From NCBI GenBank assembly GCA_027923505.1, contig BROI01000002.1, positions 372,001 to 436,000 on the forward strand: 64,000 nt of DNA. The letters run 5' to 3'. The position numbers and the translations under genes were made by a program. Within the stretch, counting starts at the first letter, position 1. The number at the start of each line of letters is the position of its first letter. The notes under the pieces are model-generated. The model worked only from the letters and a program-made list of their open reading frames with translations, was not told the origin of the DNA and made no database searches. Source of the stretch: Mayamaea pseudoterrestris (Eukaryota). Positions 1 through 64,000 of this stretch are shown here, piece after piece.

Positions 1-321
1 AACCATTGATCCTACCACCTCCCCGCCCCGCGAATGTGTTAGCTCGGTTTTAAAGCTACTGTAGTATCTACCAGTACTAGTACAGTACTACTTGACTACT
101 ATCTGCTCAGGTTCGCTCAAGTCGAAAGCCAAGTGAATCCCAGTGACAGCCTTGAAGCTGCGCACCACATGACTACCCTTTTCACATTCATTTTTTTGAT
201 CGTGACGGACGTTGCGCATGCCGACTGCTTGGCTCTTGCCGCGTCGTTGGAAGCGCAGCGAAGGAGGCGCTTGCGGTTACACATATCACTAGCCAAGCTC
301 TGCTGCTCCAGTCAAGCCACC

Positions 322-3662: not shown

Positions 3663-6600
3663 CACTCCTTTGGGCCGAGTAGTACTTACTGCTCGAGGCC
3701 AGATTCATAACCAGGTTGCGGAGCTTTCCAAACTGGGCTCCCTGCAATGGTTTCGTAAAGAAATCCGCGACCATGTCTCCGGTCGGACAATGCTCAATGT
3801 TGACTTCACCAGCTGCCACAAGATCCTTCACAAAGAAGTACCGAACATTCATGTGTCGCGTGCGCTTTGTACTTGAGCTTCTGCCATTCTTTTCCAACAG
3901 CATTGAACTCATATTGTCTTGATACAATTTCGTGTCTTTGACCCCGAAACCTTGCGCCTTCAGAAAATATCCTGTCCACAGCAACTGCGGTAGCACATCA
4001 CGAACTCCACGACTTCGCTCTCCGTCGAGCTTCTTGTTACCAACTTCTGTTTAGCCGACGTGCTGTACACTGACCCTTGGCCAAGTGTCATTGTTCCACC
4101 AGTGTGACCCTTCATGTCTGGGTGCACCGCGTACGACGCGTCCACCCACCACTGGACTATTCCGGACTGGTCCGCCTTCAGCGTCAACACCATGTCCACG
4201 CTTCCGCGTAAATACTTCACCACTCTTGCAGCCTTCTTATAGTCGTCTTCGTCCGGCTGTTGCAACCTCGTGCTCAAGAAAGAAATTGCTGTGCGAATGT
4301 CCGGTCGCGCTCGCTGGCTCAGGTACAGACACTGCATCACAATTGTCACAAAAATCTGCTTCTTCTCTTCGCTCAGCATGACTGGATTTTCCGATATCTG
4401 AAACAAGTGACTGGCCGCCGGAGTCGCTGCCGTTCCATCCATGTCGTCTGGCGCATGATGGAGGACATTCTTCACATAGTCAATCATGTTGATTGCTACT
4501 TCTCCAGGCTTAGTATAGTCCAATACCATGCCGAGGTAGTCGTGTACTTTTCCGCGTGACTTGTTCATTGGAGTCTCCTTGCCGAACTCCTCATCCATCT
4601 GCGCAATGAACTCATCCACGACGCTCACGTCGACGTGCGAAATCTTCAAATCATCCACGTGCCATCCCACGGTGATTTGCTTCCCATTGACCATCTTGTT
4701 GCACACACACGGATCATACGGGTTCTTCTCGAAGCCCCACTCGAGCAATTTTGCGGACAACTTCTCCCAGAACAGTCGCGCTGCTCGCAGCGTGCCGTAA
4801 AGCGCCATGAGTAATTCAACGTACATGACTTTCTCGCCGTTCTCCATTGTGACGCAAGGCTCGTACATTTCGCGATCAATCTCCAACAGTAGCTCCACCA
4901 TCTTCCCAGTGAAACGAACGTGCACCAACTCGTCCATTTCCGCTTGCATGAACGCGCCCGGAACATCAACCACAGCAACCTCGCGTCCTTCCATAGCGTC
5001 AATGATTGCCGTCAGAAAAATGGCCTCAGTCGCTATCGTGGGAGATGCCGCGTCTTCCTTCGCAGTGTACGCTCGTTGCTTGCGTCCATCTGCACATCCG
5101 CGTCCCTTCACAGTTCCGCACCGCTTGCGCTTGAGAAACATCAAATATGCCAGCGCATCCTTACGCTGCTGTGGAGTCAAAGTGCACTGGGGGACTGCCT
5201 TCATGACGTGTCTATCGTGTAGCTGCTGCATTTCCTTGCGCACTGCCTCCACTCCAGCATCGCCAAACGCCTTCAAACCTTGCCGCATATTCATCTGCGC
5301 CGTGACGAGTGGCTCCGTCACTTCCTCTGCAGCGTCGAGCGTGAACAAATGAGCGAACGATCGAGGTTTGCGCGCACGCAGGCCATACCGACCAGTGCGT
5401 GGGCCATAGCGCGCATCGAAATCCTCTTCATCTGCAGCAGCTGGCACTCCTTCAATTTCGCCTTCATCGGGCACTCCTTCAATTTCGCCATCATCCATGG
5501 CCGGCGCGTCGTCAAGTTCGCCTTCAATGGCCTCACCATCCTCATTGTCCGGCACTCCTTCGATTGCGCCGTCAGCACTATCGTCGTCGTCGCTGTCGTT
5601 GTCGTCATCGGTCGCATTCACTCCTTCGCTTCCGCCGGCAGAGTCGTCGTCGCCGCGAGAAGCGTCGTCATCGTAATCAGAGTCATCATCATCCGCGTCG
5701 TCATCAGCGTGCCACATGACTGGCTCAGCAGCCTCCGCAACACGGTGGCGGTCCATGAACACGATGCCCGGATTGGCCTTCTGTTGACGAGCGAGACGAT
5801 GCACGCGCTCAATGACATCATCAGGCATGGGCAAAGGCGTAGCGTGGCCACGATTCAGAATTTTGCCCGAGGACAAACTGAGGAAATAAAACCCGCCCTG
5901 CACATTACCAGTTGGGCGCAGAGCCAGCGCACCAATCGTGCGCGCCTGCATGTCATTGCTGTGCGACTCATGCGTTTGCACATACTGACCGAATTCATAC
6001 TTGCAATGCCGATGAAAGTCAACTGTCTGACCAGTCACAATGGTACGTGGACTGAGATCCTTCGAAATGCCACGCTCGTTCGGAAACGCATTCAACCAAA
6101 ACACGGCAGACTTCGTCATTTCGATAACCAATCGTGCCGGCACGTGCTTAAACGGCAACGTGTTGTATGTCGCGCGCACCCGTTCCTTCACGACACGGAT
6201 AAAACGTTCGATTTCGCCAACGTGCTCATCCTCAGACGTCGCATTGAGCGCCACTCCGAGATCAGCCAACGCGCCAAGCATTGGAGCGAACTCCCCATCC
6301 ATCAGAGCCGCAACGACGCGGAACCCACCGCGTGCGTAAATCTTCAACACAGACTCGATTGCCTTCAACATAACCGGAAGCGTACGGTTTTGAATCACCT
6401 CGACCGTAGCAAAACGAATGCTGCGGGAGAATGTCACCAACATAGGGACCTTGTTGATATACATGATGTCTGCACAAAGAGTAACGTCTCGATAGCGACT
6501 CATGATAGCCGGTGGAAGCTGCTCAACAATCGCAGGCTTCACCAGATGCGACGCGCGACGCGTCGTCTTTCCTTTTAATGAGCCAACATCGGGTCCAAAG

Positions 6601-8345
6601 ATGTGCTCAGCCGCCAGGATGTCGGCTTTTGTCACGGGGCAGTTCGGCAACTGATTGCTAGTAACGATGCGCAGGTAATCCTTGAGGCTTGGCCGTCCAA
6701 TTTTGATTTGCAATTCCCTAGCTCTAACAGCGCGTAAATAGTCATCATTGGTGTAGTTAGTACGGTTATCGTCTACCGTAGTCAACATCGCCACTCCATC
6801 CTTGACATCGCCGCGCTTGCCCTTCGAAAAACTCTCGCACACATACAGCCCAGAGTCAGTCTCGACAAACTCTCGCTGCTTACCGTCCGGCTTCTCCACG
6901 ACGAACCTTGGACGCTCCACGCCGTGCATGAGATACTCCACGGTAAACTTCTTCCGGACTTGCGCCAAACTCAAAATGTTCGCCAGCCCCTGCGGATACC
7001 ACCACACCGGACCATAGCCCTCCAAGTCGCCCATCATGTTCGTCCTCACTGTACCAGCATTGCACTTGATCACCATCCACGTTGGTACCGGGCGAATGTT
7101 CGTCAGCATCTTGGCGTTGCAGAACAGATCCACTGTCGACTGATTGTCCAAGAGCACGGCCTTCTTCGAAATGTTCACTTTCGACTTCGGCGGCTGCGCG
7201 AACATGTAGCCGATCTCGTCGTCGTCGTCGCTATCTTCCTCGCTACCCAGCGTGAAGTGCTGCGCTCCACTAGCCTCTGCAGCCGGCGCACTCTCCGTAG
7301 ACTCCGTTCTAGTAGGACAGTCTCGCTGCACATGGCCAACCTGTTGGCAGATCCAGCACCTGGGAGGGTCACGCGCGGTACCAGTCGTGTGGAACGCCAC
7401 GCCCTCGTTCGTTGGCAGCGTGGCTTCGCCATCTGCGTGCTCACGACGCTGCATGATGTTGTACGCATCGTGGATCGTCAACGGGAAATTGTCATGCCCG
7501 TCGAGATAGCAGTTGCGCAAGTGCTTGCAATACCCAGCGTACTCGCCCGTTGCGCCACGCACGAAAAGCATCGCAAGCTCAAGCTCCTCGGCGGCCTTGA
7601 TGTCCTCAGCGGTAGCCTGAGTACGGTTGTCATCCTTGGCAATGTTCGACGCGACAATATCATTGTGCATCGTGACGCCAACTGCCTTCGCGACATCTGC
7701 CAGCGTGACCATGCTTTCGTAGTATTTCTGCAGGCTTTCGCGCGCTCCTTGAGTACGTCCGAACAACTCGGCTTGAATGTCCACGACTTGATCCACAAGT
7801 TTGCAGCGCCCTTCGTACGTATGCGAGATCTCCTTGATGATCGCCAGCAACTGAATTCCGTCCGTTTCCTCCTCGGCGTCTCGGAACTTGGCATGCGACT
7901 TGACACGATCCTTCATACGCTCCGTGCATTGTCCATACAACACGGCGTAGAGTCCAGCGAGGAAGTCGGAGTACACACGCACGCGCTCGACATGTTCTTT
8001 CTTGTCGGCCTTGTATTCCTCAAGCATAATGGACCAGTCTCCATCCGTCGTGTCGTCAGCCTTGACTGGACGCGCAGGCTCGGCAGGAATTGCCAGTTCC
8101 ACGTTGCGCATCCCCTTGAGCAGCTCCTTGGTATATTTCTTGTAGGAGCGCCCGACGAAAGTGATGATCTCGTTCGTCGTTCGAATGAATCCATCGGGAT
8201 CGCGCGAACCGTTGTAATCGTAGATGAAACCAGCGAGCGTCGGCTCGCTTCCTTGGAAATTTCCACTCGGCGCACGACTCGGTCCGTTGAGTCTGTTTCC
8301 ATTGCCGTTGCCTTGGTTCCCATGCTGTTCAACCGTCGTAACTGA
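3592..8345 (-). pseudogene. Copia gag-pol polyprotein with a 1-nt frameshift in RNase H (~4007-4010) and no in-frame ATG before 8111
   Basis: Frame is open from 8345 to 3960. RNase H continues in ORF 3592-3996 (DVLPQLLWTGYFL...). GAA GTC GTG GA GTT lacks one base relative to the expected EVVGV. Confidence 0.8.
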
Positions 8346-56203: not shown

Positions 56204-57493
56204 TCACACAATCTGAATTGACGGCGCGTCATCCATAGACGCTGACAATGGCTCCCTTTTCGTATCATCAGATTCATGGTCGTTAGCCTTATCATTGCTA
56301 TCATCGCCCGCTAGGTTCACCACCAGAAAACCGATCGACACGGCGACTGCGCCTGCAAAAGACAAAACTGTCCCGACGGCCTTGCCAAGCATGGCATCGG
56401 CCAAGAACGCCATGGGTATCGTCAATCCCAATCCAACCGTGGCAATGGTGGCATTGGTCAAAATGATGGAGCGAAACAGCAGATAGTCGGTCAATACAAA
56501 GTCCATTGCTCCTTTGATCAGAATCAGTCCAAAAATGGCCCATGTGAGCTGGATCTGCGCACTCGCAAGAATGTAAATGGCAACCGGCAGTAGCGGAACA
56601 AAGCAAAAGCAGCCAATGTAGCCCAGTAGCAGCTGCATGCTATACAGTTCCTCATTCTGGGGACAAAAGACGCGAACCTGAATTGTATAGACGGCGTAGC
56701 CAACAGCCGCTAGTACAGCAAACAAGTCTCCGTAGACTGCCGACTTGTTGTTGCTGCTCATTGCCATCATGTCATCATTGCCAACGTCGAAGATGCTGCT
56801 GCTTTCGTTCGAGTCCTGAACGGCCGTCAGCGCCGTCCCAACCACGCTCAGCAACACTCCCACCAGTTTCGCATGACGGTAACCTTCCAATCGCAAAAAG
56901 ACTGCCAGCAGAAACACCAGGACCGACTGCGTCGACACCAGCACGGTGGCCGATGCCACGGACGTGTTGGAGAGTGCCGCGTTAAAGGCCCAGTCGGCGC
57001 CAAACATGGCGGGCGCAATGTATGCAGCAGCCATGACGTGTTTGGAATGGTTCCAAACGGAGATATGGTCATGGATGAGATTGTGCGATTGATGGATTAT
57101 TAAGTTGTAGTAATCGGATATTCGCGACGCCTTGGTAGTCTCTTGGCTAAAGTCTGCATAGGAGGCAACGCTTGACTGATGCGATTGGGACACTTTGCTA
57201 TCAGAATTAGCTGACTGATGTGATTGAGTTATTTTGCTGTCAATACTAGCAGCCTTGTCTTTCGTCCTCGCATTCCGTCGATCCTGCATCAGCTTGACTG
57301 GAAGAAAGACTGCAAGCAAGGACATGCCAATGTAGCTCATGAGAAAGGGCGACTGAAAATTTAGGGCGTCATACAAGTATTGCGTGATTATGGCGGCAAG
57401 AATCCAAACAATGCATTGCAGAAATATGAACAAGAGTCCAAGCACGTAGCGATATGCCGCCGGATTGGTCAACGAAGATAGTGTGTAGTTCAT
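56204..57493 (-). CDS. DMT/EamA transporter, SLC35F5/Thi74-like
   Basis: About 10 TM helices; SPFLMSY, NAALSNTSVAS, GDLFAVLAAVGYAVY, TVGLGLTIP. Confidence 0.87.
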   Translation of the reverse strand: MNYTLSSLTNPAAYRYVLGLLFIFLQCIVWILAAIITQYLYDALNFQSPFLMSYIGMSLLAVFLPVKLMQDRRNARTKDKAASIDSKITQSHQSANSDSKVSQSHQSSVASYADFSQETTKASRISDYYNLIIHQSHNLIHDHISVWNHSKHVMAAAYIAPAMFGADWAFNAALSNTSVASATVLVSTQSVLVFLLAVFLRLEGYRHAKLVGVLLSVVGTALTAVQDSNESSSIFDVGNDDMMAMSSNNKSAVYGDLFAVLAAVGYAVYTIQVRVFCPQNEELYSMQLLLGYIGCFCFVPLLPVAIYILASAQIQLTWAIFGLILIKGAMDFVLTDYLLFRSIILTNATIATVGLGLTIPMAFLADAMLGKAVGTVLSFAGAVAVSIGFLVVNLAGDDSNDKANDHESDDTKREPLSASMDDAPSIQIV

Positions 57494-57884
57494 GATGAGA
57501 ATGGAATGTGCATGGCTTATGGCTCACTCCTTACTCTCGTTGGCTGTTGGCTTGCTTCCTGCTTTCAGCTGCAACGAAAACTAAATGTGACTTGCAGATG
57601 TCTTCGGTTCAGTTGCAGTTTCGAATGTTGAGAGCACCGCGTAAGTCAAACATGGCTGTTGCTTCGTTTGCGAGGTCGTTGGCCGTTTCAACAATCCGTT
57701 TGACTCTCGAATGTGAAGCAGCCTTTGGCATTTGATGCTCGACACCCTGCCGCCCGGCGTTCGAGCGCGACGAGCCTCGCTAAGCAAGGCGTTCCGTCCT
57801 AACAAAGCCCTGCGTTTGCCTTGCGCGGTCGTGACAAGTGCGTCCTGCCTCTAAATAGACTTGGATACTTAGAGAAATGTCACT

Positions 57885-57895
57885 TGGCGAGCCAG
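57885..57895 (+). other. Primer-binding site TGGCGAGCCAG (tRNA-Arg type)
   Basis: Lies 2 nt after TGTCA and is complementary to the ...CUGGCUCGCCA 3' end of a tRNA-Arg. Confidence 0.72.
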
Positions 57896-58048
57896 TCACG
57901 CCAGCGTGTTGGCGACTCAACAGCTCCTTCCACGGTGCTGGTTTCGATCCTTTTTGCCTCACACCCCTTGACCGACGAGCATCTCCTGCCTCTTCTGTCT
58001 CCTTTTGTTGCTCCTTTGCTCCTTTAACCATCTAAACAAGCCTTTATC

Positions 58049-61000
58049 ATGTACTTTGGAAACGCTAGCCAGTCTCTAACTAGTAGCCGCTCGCTCGGAG
58101 CACCCCAAGCTTCAAATGGCACCCGAAGTGGGGACGACGGACAAGATTTGCAGTCACCGTTCCATCAAGGCGGAGGCAGCTTTTCTGCCGTTGTTACGAC
58201 CCCTACGCACCAACCAACTGGTTTACCAAGCAAGCCTCCTGTTACCGTCAACCTTGGAGACAAGGGACAGGCGACTGTCATGGCGATTCCTTCCTTTGGA
58301 GCCGATCCAGCCATCAAGGCGCATGCCTACGACTCCATCCTCCGTCAACTCGAAGGGACGGGCGCTACTAGTAACGCCATTGCCTCTGCCTTCCTTACCA
58401 TCTTTGATGGCGTCATGTCTACTAAAGCGGCCGTCAATGCTGCTATTAAAACGCAAGCTGAGTTCCGTGACAAGCTTTTCAAAGTCAAGTTCATCGAGGA
58501 TTTTACTTTCCTTTCAAGCGACGGCAGCGACATCAAAGGAGGCCTCGATCCTAATCCAAGCAAGCGCCCCGACGACATCAAGTATGTTCGCATGCACTTG
58601 CGTATCCCGGTCAAGGAGCTCCGTCTCCATGCTCACATTGTCGCCAAGGAAGACATTCGCCTCACCGGCTGCCTCGAACTGCCGACGACTTTTCCCTTGA
58701 TGGACATGACGATGCCGACGATGGCCATTACCTCCCTCAGTGTTGATCATTTCGGCTCCTCTGCTTATTCAACGCCCAATATGACGCGCAAACGCAAGAC
58801 CAACATTGAAACGACGGCAGCTTCGACGCGTTCCGGCAGCACCAAGCGCGGAGCACCTCCACCCGTCGAAGGAGGTGCGGGCCAGTTGGATGCGGGCCAG
58901 TCAGGCGGATCCGGCCGCGAAGCGACACCTCCAGCGACACCTCCACCAGCAACACCTCCACCAACCACTGGTGACGATTCAAATGCTACTGTCGAGGCGC
59001 CTCCAACTGCTACTGTCGAGGCGCCTCCAAAGAACACCTTCACCTTTGGTACATTTGCCGGCCCAGCAGGCATTATGGATCAGCAGCTCGAGTTTGATGA
59101 GGTCTTTGGTCCTCAACCATGCCTCCTCTTTGTGGAAAAGGACAAGTATTCGGCCAAGATCAACAGTTCTACTGTCACTAACAACATCAAGAAGATTGAT
59201 CAAGAGCTCTACTGCAGTGTCTTTCTGTCGATTTACCGCGAGCATTATGTCGGCGAAACATCTACAGCTCCTTCTCTGCAGAGCAACATGGATCTTATCC
59301 AGCGCCTTCAACAAGTCAAGCTCTCGACATGCCCGACCATTGCCGACTACCTGCACCGCTTCGTCAGTCTCTCTGATGATCTAAAGGGTGAGCCTGTCGA
59401 CTGGATGTGCGACATTACCGAGCTCTTCTACAATAACCTCTCCACCGACGTCAAGTCCGCCTTGGCTACCAATCCTTGCTTCTTCAAACCTGAGTCACGC
59501 CATTTCCAATGCGCCGATGAGCACCGCGCTGGCATCTCCGTCATCTGGAATCTTGCCAATAAGGAATATCAACGCCTTGCGGATCAAACCTCCTCCATCA
59601 TTGCTGCTATTGAGCTCAAGCAGCAGTCCCTCGCCGCCCATGCCGCCCAGGCTGCTCACGCCGCTCATCATGGCGTTCAAGTCTATCATGATCAACATTC
59701 TTTTCACTTGCCAACTACTGCATCTCCAAGCCGCCCACCGTCTGGCCGTAATCACGTGACTTTCAACGACTCACCATCGGGTATCCTGCGCCCAAGTCAC
59801 CTCTCCGCCTACAACTCTTCCCCAGCTGAACAGACTCTCCGTCGCTATCAGTCTCCTCTCTCGGCTGCTATTCCAGATGGAGCAACTTACACGTATTCCA
59901 TCTTCCCTTGGCTTCCGCCCCACATTCGCAATAACCCTTCTGAAGTGCATGCACCTCGCCCTCGCAACACTCGCATTTGCCTTTGGTGCTTTGAGACTGG
60001 CCATACCTTCCGCCAATGCCCTGCCGAAGGGTCTCGCACGCCTGAAGCTGAGCAACAATTCTTCTCCAACTGGAATATTGCACGTGGCATGATTATTGAG
60101 GACCGCGCTAACCGTGAATCCAGAGCCAGTCTCCGCCAAGCCAACCCTGCTTCCAGCACTACTTCACAGTGGCAACCATCGGCCGCCGTCGCCGCTCATC
60201 ACACTACTGCTCACCGTCACATTAATAACGAGCCTTCTTGGATGACTCGAGATGCAGCTCGCTCCTCGGCCGCACCCTCCGCTCCTCCCCAACCTGACGA
60301 TGACGTGCACTTCTCCGCGCCCTCCTACTTTGGTGCCATTGCCTCCTACCGCATTCAGGCTCAACCAGCTCCAGGCGCCGTTGTTCCTTTTGCCAATCCT
60401 GTTGATGACAATCTCCCTTTCATCACCTTTGTCATCGGTTCTACTGGCAATGACTTCCCCATCACCGCCCTTTTCGACACGGGTTCCACTTCAACTTTGG
60501 GCAACAAGTCCTACCACATCAAATTCTCTGCCGATCATCCATCCGCTGTTGCCAAGTGGTATCACGCCGGCGACAGCATCAACCCAGCTGTTGCCATGGG
60601 ACTGACCGGCATTGTGGCCGATGACGGCCGGCCATCTACCACCTGCCTCAACGACATTGTGGTTTACAACACTCCTGTTGGTGAATGGTCCGTTGCAGTT
60701 GGAGATCATGTCAGCCTACCTACTGTGATGGGCCGCGCCGATCAAAAGCGCTTTGACATGTACTTGATGAAGGTGAACGGCAAGGATGTGATCCGCTCTT
60801 TCAAGCATCGGCAAGACTACACAGTCATCTACCGTCCTCCAACGAATATTAGCCCTCTTCCTCCAGCCACTTCAGCGGCTATCCATCCCTCTTTACCGGT
60901 ACCTTCTCCTCCAGTTGCTCATGCCGCCACCCTCCTACCAAGCCTCGCACCCTCGCTACCTTCACCACCAATTGCAGCCATTCCACCTCCTACTGAGCCC

Positions 61001-61105
61001 TCGTCTCCAGCCTCCTCTCATCCATCCTTGGACGTCCCTTTCGGCACTCATCTGGCGTCCGTCAACAACCTCGCTGAGCACTTGGCCACTAACCGCCCCA
61101 TCTAG
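58049..61105 (+). CDS. Gypsy ORF1: Gag with zinc knuckle plus aspartic protease
   Basis: CLWCFETGHTFRQC (~59978-60019), ALFDTGS and VMGR protease motifs; ends at TAG 61103-61105. Confidence 0.85.
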   Translation: MYFGNASQSLTSSRSLGAPQASNGTRSGDDGQDLQSPFHQGGGSFSAVVTTPTHQPTGLPSKPPVTVNLGDKGQATVMAIPSFGADPAIKAHAYDSILRQLEGTGATSNAIASAFLTIFDGVMSTKAAVNAAIKTQAEFRDKLFKVKFIEDFTFLSSDGSDIKGGLDPNPSKRPDDIKYVRMHLRIPVKELRLHAHIVAKEDIRLTGCLELPTTFPLMDMTMPTMAITSLSVDHFGSSAYSTPNMTRKRKTNIETTAASTRSGSTKRGAPPPVEGGAGQLDAGQSGGSGREATPPATPPPATPPPTTGDDSNATVEAPPTATVEAPPKNTFTFGTFAGPAGIMDQQLEFDEVFGPQPCLLFVEKDKYSAKINSSTVTNNIKKIDQELYCSVFLSIYREHYVGETSTAPSLQSNMDLIQRLQQVKLSTCPTIADYLHRFVSLSDDLKGEPVDWMCDITELFYNNLSTDVKSALATNPCFFKPESRHFQCADEHRAGISVIWNLANKEYQRLADQTSSIIAAIELKQQSLAAHAAQAAHAAHHGVQVYHDQHSFHLPTTASPSRPPSGRNHVTFNDSPSGILRPSHLSAYNSSPAEQTLRRYQSPLSAAIPDGATYTYSIFPWLPPHIRNNPSEVHAPRPRNTRICLWCFETGHTFRQCPAEGSRTPEAEQQFFSNWNIARGMIIEDRANRESRASLRQANPASSTTSQWQPSAAVAAHHTTAHRHINNEPSWMTRDAARSSAAPSAPPQPDDDVHFSAPSYFGAIASYRIQAQPAPGAVVPFANPVDDNLPFITFVIGSTGNDFPITALFDTGSTSTLGNKSYHIKFSADHPSAVAKWYHAGDSINPAVAMGLTGIVADDGRPSTTCLNDIVVYNTPVGEWSVAVGDHVSLPTVMGRADQKRFDMYLMKVNGKDVIRSFKHRQDYTVIYRPPTNISPLPPATSAAIHPSLPVPSPPVAHAATLLPSLAPSLPSPPIAAIPPPTEPSSPASSHPSLDVPFGTHLASVNNLAEHLATNRPI

Positions 61106-64000
61106 GGGTGCCGCTCAGTGAGTAGCCTCGCTGAGCCTTCGTCATCTTTTGCATCATGGCCGGCCGCTCCATTGACCGACTCTGCCTGCCAAGATAATGT
61201 TTCAGCCAAGGCCTTTGCCATTGACGTTCCTCCCAAACGATGGCGCCCCAAGCCGCAAGCTGCCTACCATCCCACTGATGAGTATAACCTGCCCGACAGC
61301 TTCTTCATTCACCGGAAACTTGGCAAAGGAGCGGTTGATGTGAGCATTGACGAGCTGCCTCCTCGTGATGACCTCCTGCATTATGATTCCCTCAAGCACA
61401 AACCATTCATGGAGAAGCACCTCAAGATCGATGCCACTTGCCCTGCCAACATTGCAGCTATCATCAAGGAAACAATCATTCGCAACTTTGATGCATTTGA
61501 TGAGGAAGGCGTCCGACGCCCTGCTAGAGGCATTCTCTTTCACATTGACACTGGCAGTGCTCAGCCCATCTGCGTTCCTCAGCCTCGCTACGGTGTGCAT
61601 GAAGCCCCCATCATGCAACAGCAAATTGATGCTCTCCTCCACAATGGCATGATCAAGCGCAACTATGGACCATGGGCTATGAAACTTGTCCTTGCTCCCA
61701 AGCCCCACCAAGAAGACATTGAGGACATCACTGATTTCATCTGGCGCATGTGTGTCAACTTCCAGCCACTCAACAAGATTACCCTCCTCTTTCGCTACTG
61801 GATTCCCCGTTGCGCCGACGCCTTGCAACTTCTCAATGATAGCCAAGGCCCCTTGTTTGCTATCAGCGTCGATGCCGACAGTGGCTTCCACCAGATTGGA
61901 GTCACCGACGAGACACATGATAAGCTGGCATTCTGGGGTCCCGACCAGCAGAAATATGCCTACACAGTCATGCCATTCGGTCCTACCAACTGCCCTTCCG
62001 TCTTCCAGTGCCTCATGGGCAAGGTCACTGATTACTGCAAGAAACTGATTGCTGCAGGTCTTCCACCAAGTCAAGCAGCCTCCGGCGCCATGTATGTCAT
62101 CAAGAATGTGATCGACGATCTCCTACTGCTCTCCAATGACCGTCACTACCTTTGCTACGTCTTTGACTGCCTCTGTCAAGCATTCATTCACTTCCGGCTC
62201 ACCTTCAAGTTGAAGAAATGCGACTTCTTCTTCAATCGCCTGGAATGGCTTGGTCACGACTGGACTCCCTCTGGCAATGTTCCTGCCCAATCCAAGTTTG
62301 ACTTGATCCGCAACTGGGCCTTGCCCACAACGTCGCAAGCCCTCAACTCCTTCGTCAGCTTCTGTGGCTTCTACCGCAATTACCTACCTTTCTTTGAATA
62401 TATCATCACACCACTTCGCCAGCTTATCCGACAGCACAAGCACTCATCCATCCCTCATACCGCCTGGTCTCCAGTTCTCCTCAAGCTTTTCAACCAACTC
62501 AAAGCCGCCATCACATCTTCTCCCTGCCTAGCCCGTGCCGATTCCTCTACACCCTTCTTCATCAAAACTGACTGGTCTGCCAAGAGTGTTGCCTCCATTC
62601 TCATGCAACCAGACAACTCCGCTGCCTCTCGAGCTGCACTTCTCGCCATGGATGCTGGTGCAGCATGCGCCTTTGACAAAACCAAATCTGGTGCCCGCCT
62701 GCGTCCTATCAGCTTCAACCAGCGGAATTGCTCGGAAATTGAGACCCACTATCATTCCTTTGTGGGAGAGGCCGCGGCTGGTCGCTACGGCATTCACATT
62801 AACCGTCACTTCCTCTGGGGTAAGAAGTTTTACTGGCTCTGTGACTGCAATGCCATCTCTGCACTGCTTTCCTACGAGGGTGACAACCATCTCCTTCGGC
62901 GCTGGGCCATGGACCTTCTTGGCTATACCTTCGAGATCATCCATCGTCCTGAACGCATGATGCAAGATGTTGACGCCTTGAGCCGCCATTACGCACACTG
63001 TGATCCCTTGGTCCGGCAATATAACCTGCAGAGTGATGCCTTGCGCGCCGCCAGCTTCACTGCCAACCCAAGTCAGTTTCTTCCCGTTCCCATGAGTGCA
63101 CTTTCTGCACGAGGCTCCTATATTCCACCAAGCCAGCCTCCCTCAGCTACCTCCACCGCTGCCTTCTCCATCATGGATCCCCTGCCCTCGCCTGCCACTG
63201 TGCCTTCTACGCTATCAACATTCAGCACCATTCTCTGCAGTCATGGCATTCGCTCCTCCGCACGTCAATCGCCTACCAGCGTCATACCAGCCAACCCAAC
63301 TGCACCTCCTACCCTTCAGCACCTCCTTCATTGCGGAGTCAATGTTTCCTCCCCTGTGCACTCCTCTCCCTTGCCCGTCTGCAGTGACTCCAGCGCCATT
63401 GCATCCCACCTTGTGCATCAGCACTATCTTCCCTGGTTATCCATCAATAGCCCACCTGGCGTCCATGCCCTCAGCCATGACTGCATTTTGCCATCAAATC
63501 TTCTTCTGCTCCATCAGTGTGATTCTCGCCGTCAACTCTGTCAGCGCCTCCACTCTGCAAGCATTCATCGCACCTACGACCCGACAGCCCCCATCTTGTC
63601 CGATGCATCAACCCTTGCTGGCTTCTCTTCCTTCGCTGGCTGCGACTCTACCTACTCACCACGTGACGGCCTTCTTTCCACATGGTTATCCTCAACTCTT
63701 GCCCTCTTCACTGGCCTCAGTCACTCCCATGCTCTGCGCCACTTTGTCATCATTATTCCAACGACCATGAGCCCTTCACCATCCTCTACATCAAGTCCAC
63801 CTGCCTACCCTGACTTTGTTGCACCATGTCTTCATCTCCATTCCTCCTCTTGGACAAGCCATGCCTCCATCTCCTGGAGCCAGGACTTTGGTGATCGCAT
63901 TTCTCGAGGCACTCTCTACATTTTTGGTGTCTCCACCTCGGTTGCCGACTGCTCTTCCTTGCTCTCTGCCATCAGCACATTGCCTACCCTCGGCGCGGAT
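61106..64000 (+). CDS. Gypsy Pol (RT - RNase H - extra domain), same frame as ORF1, open to window end (absent from ORF track)
   Basis: Hand translation gives WRMCVNFQPLN, VDADSGFHQI, MPFGPTN, NVIDD, KCDFF, WLGH; RNase H KTDWS, VGEAAA, LCDC, DVDALSR. No stop was seen up to 64000. Confidence 0.9.

Follow-up and report, generated by a model that had tools for sequence, protein, structure and literature searches.

A probable relic of a C5 cytosine methyltransferase in the Pol polyprotein of a Ty3/gypsy retrotransposon from Mayamaea pseudoterrestris

Several retrotransposons encode DNA methyltransferases (DNMTs) of their own. KnitGypsy-Dnmt3 of Klebsormidium and SymbioLINE-Dnmt and SymbioDIRS-Dnmt3 of Symbiodinium are such elements, and the portion of the report available to us states that their enzymes keep the key catalytic residues, methylate CG in yeast and are recognized by Pfam (PMC5890265). 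The "EpiLTRs" of Cymbomonas and Euglena likewise carry a DNMT, which in Cymbomonas lies at the 3' end of pol according to the accessible part of a preprint (bioRxiv 10.64898/2026.05.21.726589). Here we analyzed a stretch of 64,000 nucleotides from Mayamaea pseudoterrestris (contig BROI01000002.1, positions 372,001 to 436,000 of the forward strand; the window, in whose numbering all positions are given), at the end of which lies a Ty3/gypsy-type retrotransposon whose Pol reading frame continues beyond RNase H into an extra domain. An initial annotation, made from the sequence of the window, had proposed that this region is a degenerate C5 DNA methyltransferase, and had cited as precedent the existence of DNMT-carrying retrotransposons, which the Symbiodinium and Klebsormidium elements do provide in the text available to us (PMC5890265).

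Our analysis indicates that the domain is probably a relic derived from a C5 DNA cytosine methyltransferase, on the basis of weak structural matches and the collinear spacing of motifs. With moderate confidence, we consider it best described as a novel form of the cytosine methyltransferases known to be carried by retrotransposons, one that is catalytically dead. It would resemble KnitGypsy-Dnmt3 in being a C5-type domain inside a gypsy Pol, as far as that element is described in the accessible text (PMC5890265), but it differs from the published retrotransposon DNMTs in that Pfam does not recognize it and, if the motif mapping holds, the sequences that reach each motif (2 to 4 of 4) all lack its catalytic residues. 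It differs also from the Cymbomonas EpiLTRs, with their DNMT at the 3' end of pol in the part of the preprint available, in being placed between RNase H and integrase. The diatom gypsy elements of the GyDi group have the typical order of protease (PR), reverse transcriptase (RT), RNase H (RH) and integrase (IN), and the available portion of their description mentions no extra domain (PMC2806351). In the literature that we searched by full text, supplements aside, no long terminal repeat (LTR) retrotransposon was described as carrying a DNMT domain that is catalytically dead.

The Pol region downstream of RNase H

The Pol stop-to-stop frame (P0001) extends from 61106 to 64000, comprises 965 codons and is open up to the end of the window. 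The features that define it are as follows.

61742..62257, + strand: reverse transcriptase domain (Pfam RVT_1, E 8.6e-13, P0001 residues 213-384)
62465..62986, + strand: RNase H domain, ending at DVDALSR (Pfam RT_RNaseH_2, E 2e-14, and RT_RNaseH, E 3.2e-11; residues 454-607)
62966-62986, + strand: the motif DVDALSR
63005..63433, + strand: Pro/Ser-rich linker, predicted to lack stable structure (predicted local distance difference test score, pLDDT, of ~25-30 over residues 21-140 of the tail, P0002) and alignable with the relative P0004
63434..64000, + strand: N-terminal ~190 residues of the extra domain, by homology and models a probable dead C5-methyltransferase fold, cut by the window end

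With these Pfam families in Pol and an FDTGS protease motif upstream, the Ty3/gypsy-type order PR-RT-RH is present, and the extra region does follow a gypsy RNase H as the initial annotation had it. The frame, which had been said to stay open for more than 330 codons past DVDALSR, runs for 338 codons without a stop, and the reported lack of an integrase zinc-binding motif in the window was borne out twice over: a regular-expression search found no H..H..C..C pattern in the 965 Pol residues, and Pfam found neither an integrase nor any other family after RNase H in P0001.

Whether such a tail is a protein domain at all depends above all on its having relatives. We therefore used its 332 residues (P0002) as a phmmer query against 1.84 billion representative proteins and obtained four matches. 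P0003 (189 residues) matched at E 5e-15; P0004 (1104 residues), which has a homologous RT-RNase H as well as the whole tail, matched at E 1.5e-5; and P0005 (1062 residues), which begins inside the domain, matched at E 1.9e-4. The identity of the tail with these three is 30-34%. The fourth, P0006, is a bacterial repeat protein of 859 residues (E 4e-4) that matched through a repeated unit, (V/T)NGCDS(T/V)YTL, resembling AGCDSTYS, and we judged this match spurious and probably due to chance. The window sequence, P0003, P0004 and P0005 align collinearly with 13 invariant columns, so that conservation among related elements, on which the initial annotation had made its proposal depend, was found in three relatives at ~30% identity. 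Between the window and P0004 the identity is ~55% over RT-RNase H and ~30% over the tail.

The position of the domain relative to the integrase can be read from P0005, in which the domain occupies residues 1-310, matches to the PFV and Ty3 integrase chains begin at residue 311, and Pfam places Integrase_H2C2 at 384-441. The downstream integrase that the initial annotation had asked for was thus located in a homologue, and the alignment places the extra domain between RNase H and integrase. Given this order in P0005, the integrase of the window element probably lies past 64000. By homology, the conserved domain is ~350 residues long, of which the window holds only the first ~190; a further ~190 domain residues and then the integrase probably follow beyond the window end.

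Further searches added little to this small family. A homologous-protein search with the tail gave nothing further, and family-profile searches returned only the family's own members (P0004 in the search termed "longer", P0003 in that termed "near"); as the "longer" search missed P0005, the blanks in these searches carry little weight. In metagenomes, a scan with the domain profile gave 34 pattern matches, none of which was confirmed, and a scan with the Pol alignment gave 392, of which a single locus was confirmed, a 1192-base RT-RH fragment (L008) that ends before the tail. In the cluster listing the relatives form single-member clusters. The domain alignment consists of four sequences only, and this limits all inference about the fold.

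An open frame in such DNA might also have a trivial origin. The sequence from 63000 to 64000 is rich in C and T (A 0.17, G 0.165), as a result of which stops are scarce on the + strand, and the three + frames contain 0, 2 and 10 of them. It could be proposed that the tail is a non-functional spacer or a decaying relic, open only through the few stops of C/T-rich DNA, and the second + frame with only 2 stops in 333 codons, the predicted disorder of most of the tail, and its faster evolution than RT-RH (30% against 55% identity) are all in keeping with such a proposal. We nevertheless consider it highly improbable. In 5000 first-order Markov simulations of 63000-64000 a given frame was free of stops in just 0.5% (P ~0.005), and 63404-64000 agrees with RT-RNase H in its base composition at the third codon position (A.13, C.44, G.10, T.33 in the former; A.12, C.45, G.16, T.27 in the latter). 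Moreover, three other proteins match with significant E-values and align collinearly, and in P0005 the frame is continuous through the domain into the integrase. The tail is real coding sequence, and the decisive point is the existence of relatives of its translation elsewhere.

Contigs of two public sequencing runs, which hold the element in fragments, show 193 differences from the window. Among the 40 of these that were listed, 28 are synonymous and 30 fall at codon position 3; four are in the linker and none is inside 63430-63931, so that the pattern speaks for gag-pol only. The differences fit purifying selection on gag-pol as a whole.

Structural neighbours and motif correspondence

To examine the fold we used two AlphaFold models, one of the full-length domain of the homologue (P0004 residues 700-1055; model 1) and one of the window tail (P0002; model 2). 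The two share a helix-strand-helix-strand-strand core at pLDDT 50-77, which in model 1 is the only such part, ~95 residues at pLDDT 55-77. In a Foldseek comparison of model 1 with the PDB, C5 cytosine methyltransferases made up 38 of the 41 listed matches, among them M.MpeI (the best, E 0.013), DNMT1, M.HhaI, M.HaeIII, DIM2, MET1 and DNMT2, and the other 3 were other methyltransferases dependent on S-adenosylmethionine (SAM); the Foldseek probabilities were 0.85-0.96. Against the viral structure library BFVD, the best match of model 1 had an E of 1.7e-4, with 2 matches at E<=1e-3, and among 50 matches 13 were named cytosine-C5 methyltransferase and 4 SAM-dependent methyltransferase. Structural alignment by VIA placed P0002 residues 215..331 onto M.HhaI 79..188, the range of motifs IV-VIII. 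An ESM Atlas feature search with P0004 700-1055 was headed, at a score of 0.85, by two clusters with PF00145 in 29% and 33% of their sequences, which we take as a lead only.

A number of observations weigh against a methyltransferase origin, and they fall into two groups. The first concerns the models themselves. Built on alignments of four sequences, both are poor (mean pLDDT 43.2 for model 1 and 42.0 for model 2), and structural matches from models of such low confidence can be meaningless, as the tool itself cautions. With neither model did a Foldseek match in the PDB reach E 1e-3. For model 2 the matches were unspecific, with C5 methyltransferases making up 5 of the 46 listed (best E 0.09) alongside Alba, acetyltransferases and V-ATPase, and P0005 1-310, used as a query in the ESM Atlas, yielded no usable match. 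The half that would hold motifs I-III was modelled at pLDDT 25-35, so that the SAM-binding Rossmann half is without model support, and in model 2 all of residues 21-222 (linker plus the motif I-III region) are below 50. The more confident core, a beta-alpha-beta-alpha-beta-beta unit, is of a kind not confined to methyltransferases, and in the VIA lists Alba and IF3-C stand level with the C5 enzymes. In both models disorder is predicted for most of the tail, an outcome that the initial annotation had counted against its own proposal. The comparison by AlphaFold and Foldseek that it had suggested was dominated by C5 enzymes for the homologue and unspecific for the window sequence itself.

The second group comes from methods that work on sequences and profiles. 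Pfam found no PF00145, and no methyltransferase family of any kind, at E<=1 in P0001 and P0002 or at E<=10 in P0003-P0005. The family profile, searched against PDB sequences, retrieved only an enolase (E 1.6). We also compared it with a reference set of seven C5 methyltransferases (E. coli Dcm and six phage enzymes): hhalign gave a probability of 0.16 and an E of 0.37 in a different register, with no match in either local or global mode; hmmsearch --max gave scores no better than those of 250 shuffles per sequence; and hmmalign to the C5 hidden Markov model (HMM) put all residues into inserts. The C5-like character that the initial annotation saw in this region is thus weakly supported by the structural neighbours of the homologue, in the PDB and in BFVD, and by the VIA alignment over motifs IV-VIII, but not by any sequence or profile method.

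In view of the generic core, it was reasonable to consider that the domain might be a lineage-specific nucleic-acid-binding domain with an IF3-C/Alba-like beta-alpha-beta-alpha-beta-beta core and no methyltransferase ancestry, its motif likeness having arisen by chance. The ties in the VIA lists, the Alba-family matches of model 2, and the failure of every profile method to connect the domain with PF00145 are all consistent with this proposal. On the other hand, none of the 41 listed matches of model 1 was to IF3-C or Alba, the independent viral library also gave C5 methyltransferases (E 1.7e-4 to 1e-2), and the ESM Atlas lead is to clusters with PF00145. In addition, a domain of ~350 residues far exceeds an IF3-C/Alba unit, and in P0004 and P0005 it has conserved C-terminal helices at the place of motifs IX-X. 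We regard a domain of this kind as unlikely.

A degenerate N6-adenine methyltransferase of the type found in DIRS elements (DAM) also had to be weighed. DAM domains are described at exactly the same place in gypsy-type Pols, between RT and integrase, in the accessible part of the preprint on DAM-LTR retrotransposons (bioRxiv 10.64898/2026.05.21.726589), so that those elements share with ours an accessory methyltransferase-type domain at that site. Both enzyme classes have the class I fold, and a weak structural match therefore separates them poorly. The DAM-LTR domains, as described there, belong to another methyltransferase class and are detectable by sequence, whereas the structural neighbours here are C5 enzymes: among the matches listed by Foldseek and VIA there is no adenine methyltransferase or Dam, those with a name being cytosine-C5 or unspecified SAM-dependent enzymes. 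Nor did Pfam, at E<=10, assign a methyltransferase family of any kind, though no dedicated comparison with a Dam profile was run, and the four-sequence alignment contains no conserved D/N-P-P-Y/F string. We think a DAM origin very unlikely. A duplication of RNase H, or the "tether" version of that idea, was considered as well and rejected: no RNase H is among the listed structural neighbours, and the topology of RNase H is at odds with the predicted helix-strand order of the domain.

If the domain does derive from a C5 methyltransferase, its conserved segments should find their counterparts among the motifs of these enzymes in the same order. We paired them under the guidance of the VIA ranges and the consensus of the seven reference enzymes, and the individual residue pairings are putative. 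The segments of the window are the following; the strings quoted by the initial annotation all lie at or adjoining the positions that it gave.

63434-63460, + strand: motif I-like WLSINSPPG, assigned by eye only, in a region of low model confidence
63500-63523, + strand: motif II-like LLLLHQCD, assigned by eye only, pLDDT below 50
from 63632, + strand: FAGCDSTY, placed by its position in the Pol translation
63635..63670, + strand: AGCDSTYSPRDG, putative counterpart of motif IV (GFPCQxFSxAG), from the alignment and VIA
from 63734, + strand: LRHFVIIIP, placed by its position in the Pol translation
63740..63766, + strand: HFVIIIPTT, beta strand predicted where motif VI (ENV) would lie, from the alignment and strand E246-252 of model 2
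63884..63931, + strand: DFGDRISRGTLYIFGV, predicted beta hairpin at the putative place of motifs VII-VIII ([FY]G..QxRxR..I.G), strands E283-291 and E302-310 of model 2

By eye, G[FYC]D[CSA]T[YC]S..DG of the family and GFPCQxFSxAG can be paired without gaps. A distance of 41 residues separates this motif IV counterpart from the following conserved strand, F.[LI][IMFL][IVL]P, as it does motif IV from motif VI (ENV) in M.HhaI. Beyond it, again by eye, [FY]GD..[SCY][RK]......G pairs with FGVPQxRxR..IIG of the reference consensus. In the part of the domain past the window end, P0004 and P0005 share a C-terminal helical region with a conserved R......E where motifs IX-X would lie, and YRP...[RP]E...ML..D there pairs by eye with R.LTPRE..RLQGFPD.

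On this mapping the catalytic residues would be absent. Motif I is the FxGxG SAM-binding loop, with which DLFAGIGG of the reference consensus agrees; at the sole candidate place FxGxG is absent from the two of the four sequences that cover it, the window reading SINSPPG and P0004 SIHAPLAP. At the Pro-Cys of motif IV, proline is found in none of the four and cysteine in two, the window having G-C-D-S-T (Asp-Ser), P0004 and P0005 D-C, and P0003 D-A. The motif VI strands read IIIPTT, LMIPLT, LFLPLQ and LIVPVP, with neither a glutamate in any of the four nor Glu-Asn-Val. In QxRxR of motif VIII a basic residue stands at the first Arg position (R in 3/4, K in 1/4), while the Gln and the second Arg are missing from all four. 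The proposed loss of the catalytic PC, ENV and QxRxR residues is therefore borne out, if the mapping holds, for the Pro, the Glu, the Gln and the second Arg in all four sequences and for the Cys in the window, though two relatives retain the Cys, but not for the first basic residue. If the pairing is right, activity of the domain as a cytosine methyltransferase is excluded. By the features that define the family, as they are read from the alignment, it is not a member of the PF00145 C5 methyltransferases.

One candidate for motif VIII was set aside. In a profile Smith-Waterman comparison the best segment was 7 columns long, FGVPFRR against FGVPQNR of motif VIII, and it scored above all 60 column shuffles at three of four gap settings and was equalled by 3 of 60 at the fourth; however, its place directly ahead of the motif IX-like helix breaks collinearity with the structural mapping. 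This best local match falls in a string beyond the window end, F[GA][IV]PFR[DR][RS], that is conserved between P0004 974-981 and P0005 207-214 and is like the motif VIII consensus FGVPQxR.

The remainder of the element and of the window

Upstream of Pol lies the gag-protease (gag-PR) frame, for which the open reading frame list gives stop-to-stop limits of 58028-61105 in the same phase as the Pol frame. Pfam found no match in it, and its features were read from the sequence directly.

58049..61102, + strand: gag-protease reading frame, with its first ATG at 58049
59978-60019, + strand: CCHC zinc knuckle CLWCFETGHTFRQC, a sequence motif in gag-PR
60473-60487, + strand: aspartic protease motif FDTGS in gag-PR
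61103..61105, + strand: in-frame TAG, followed by GGG, between gag-PR and Pol; presumed readthrough site, from the sequence and the shared phase

The single TAG, with gag-PR and Pol in one frame, suggests stop-codon readthrough over frameshifting, and it is plausible that Pol is expressed solely through readthrough at TAG-GGG. As far as it can be read, this is an intact-looking Ty3/gypsy-type retrotransposon. The 3' end of the element lies outside the window. Within the window blastn did not find any part of 57001-64000 repeated, and neither blastn nor tblastn with P0001, P0003, P0004 and P0005 found another copy of the element or the domain there. The stretch 4001-8000 is C-rich (C 0.31-0.32), a composition like that of the retrotransposon; tblastn with the same four proteins was empty in it.

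The contigs of runs X1-X3 break at 58033-58117, where loose ends occur on either side, and summed contig depth is 2-4x higher in the first 200-base bin than over the remainder of the element. This may be a short segment common to other repeats, or a repeat-unit boundary just before the gag ATG at 58049. The copies in the runs also differ from the window at 58815-58822 and 58984 by small CT-rich insertions and a 24-base deletion, and both variants are in the Pro/Thr/Ala-rich repetitive part of gag.

Possible role and significance

The history that we propose begins with the capture of a C5 DNA cytosine methyltransferase by the ancestor of a small clade. Later the captured domain would have been stripped of four features, namely the SAM loop FxGxG, the nucleophile of Pro-Cys, the glutamate of ENV and the second arginine in QxRxR, giving an element with the order gag-PR, in-frame TAG, RT, RNase H, disordered Pro/Ser linker, ~350-residue domain and integrase, in which the domain would have been kept as a non-catalytic module. 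Our preferred role for such a module is that of a DNA- or chromatin-binding tether, acting with the integrase in the pre-integration complex and affecting where or how the cDNA integrates.

We favour a retained role because elements with no more than ~30% identity over the domain all keep its frame open at this site, between RNase H and integrase, and because the window element looks intact as far as it can be read. A non-catalytic function of this kind would most simply be DNA or chromatin binding, by analogy with the chromodomain of chromoviruses, an accessory Pol domain that steers integration without catalysis according to the accessible part of the preprint cited above (bioRxiv 10.64898/2026.05.21.726589). 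The analogy that we propose is one of function for an accessory Pol domain and does not extend to structure, since the chromodomain has another fold and lies C-terminal to the integrase.

A more active part can also be imagined for a dead methyltransferase. DNMT3L is an inactive paralogue of DNMT3A/B, encoded by a host gene, and is the partner of active DNMT3. It has been called a "catalytically inactive cofactor" in the part available to us of a recent preprint (bioRxiv 10.1101/2023.09.07.556008). Like DNMT3L, the domain described here would combine a methyltransferase-like fold with a lack of activity and a non-catalytic role, although it is part of a transposon polyprotein and has no known partner. 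It might serve as a weapon, by diverting or blocking the host DNA methyltransferase at new insertions in the manner of DNMT3L, or as a guide, by reading methylation or chromatin and steering the integrase to safe sites. Either is conceivable, but we hold both to be distinctly doubtful; were one of them true, it would mean that a pseudo-enzyme had been co-opted by a transposon in its arms race with host silencing.

Retrotransposons with working DNA methyltransferases are a recent discovery, and they have made it clear that mobile elements have the means to manipulate even the mark by which they are silenced. Should the fold assignment fail, what is described here would still be a conserved and uncharacterised Pol domain of a small gypsy clade. 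If a retained methyltransferase relic is the correct explanation, however, such captures would be older and more widespread than domain scans indicate, since they would be invisible to ordinary domain searches. The domain would then be the transposon counterpart of host pseudo-enzymes such as DNMT3L, and it would give experiments a point of entry to integration targeting or silencing evasion in algae.

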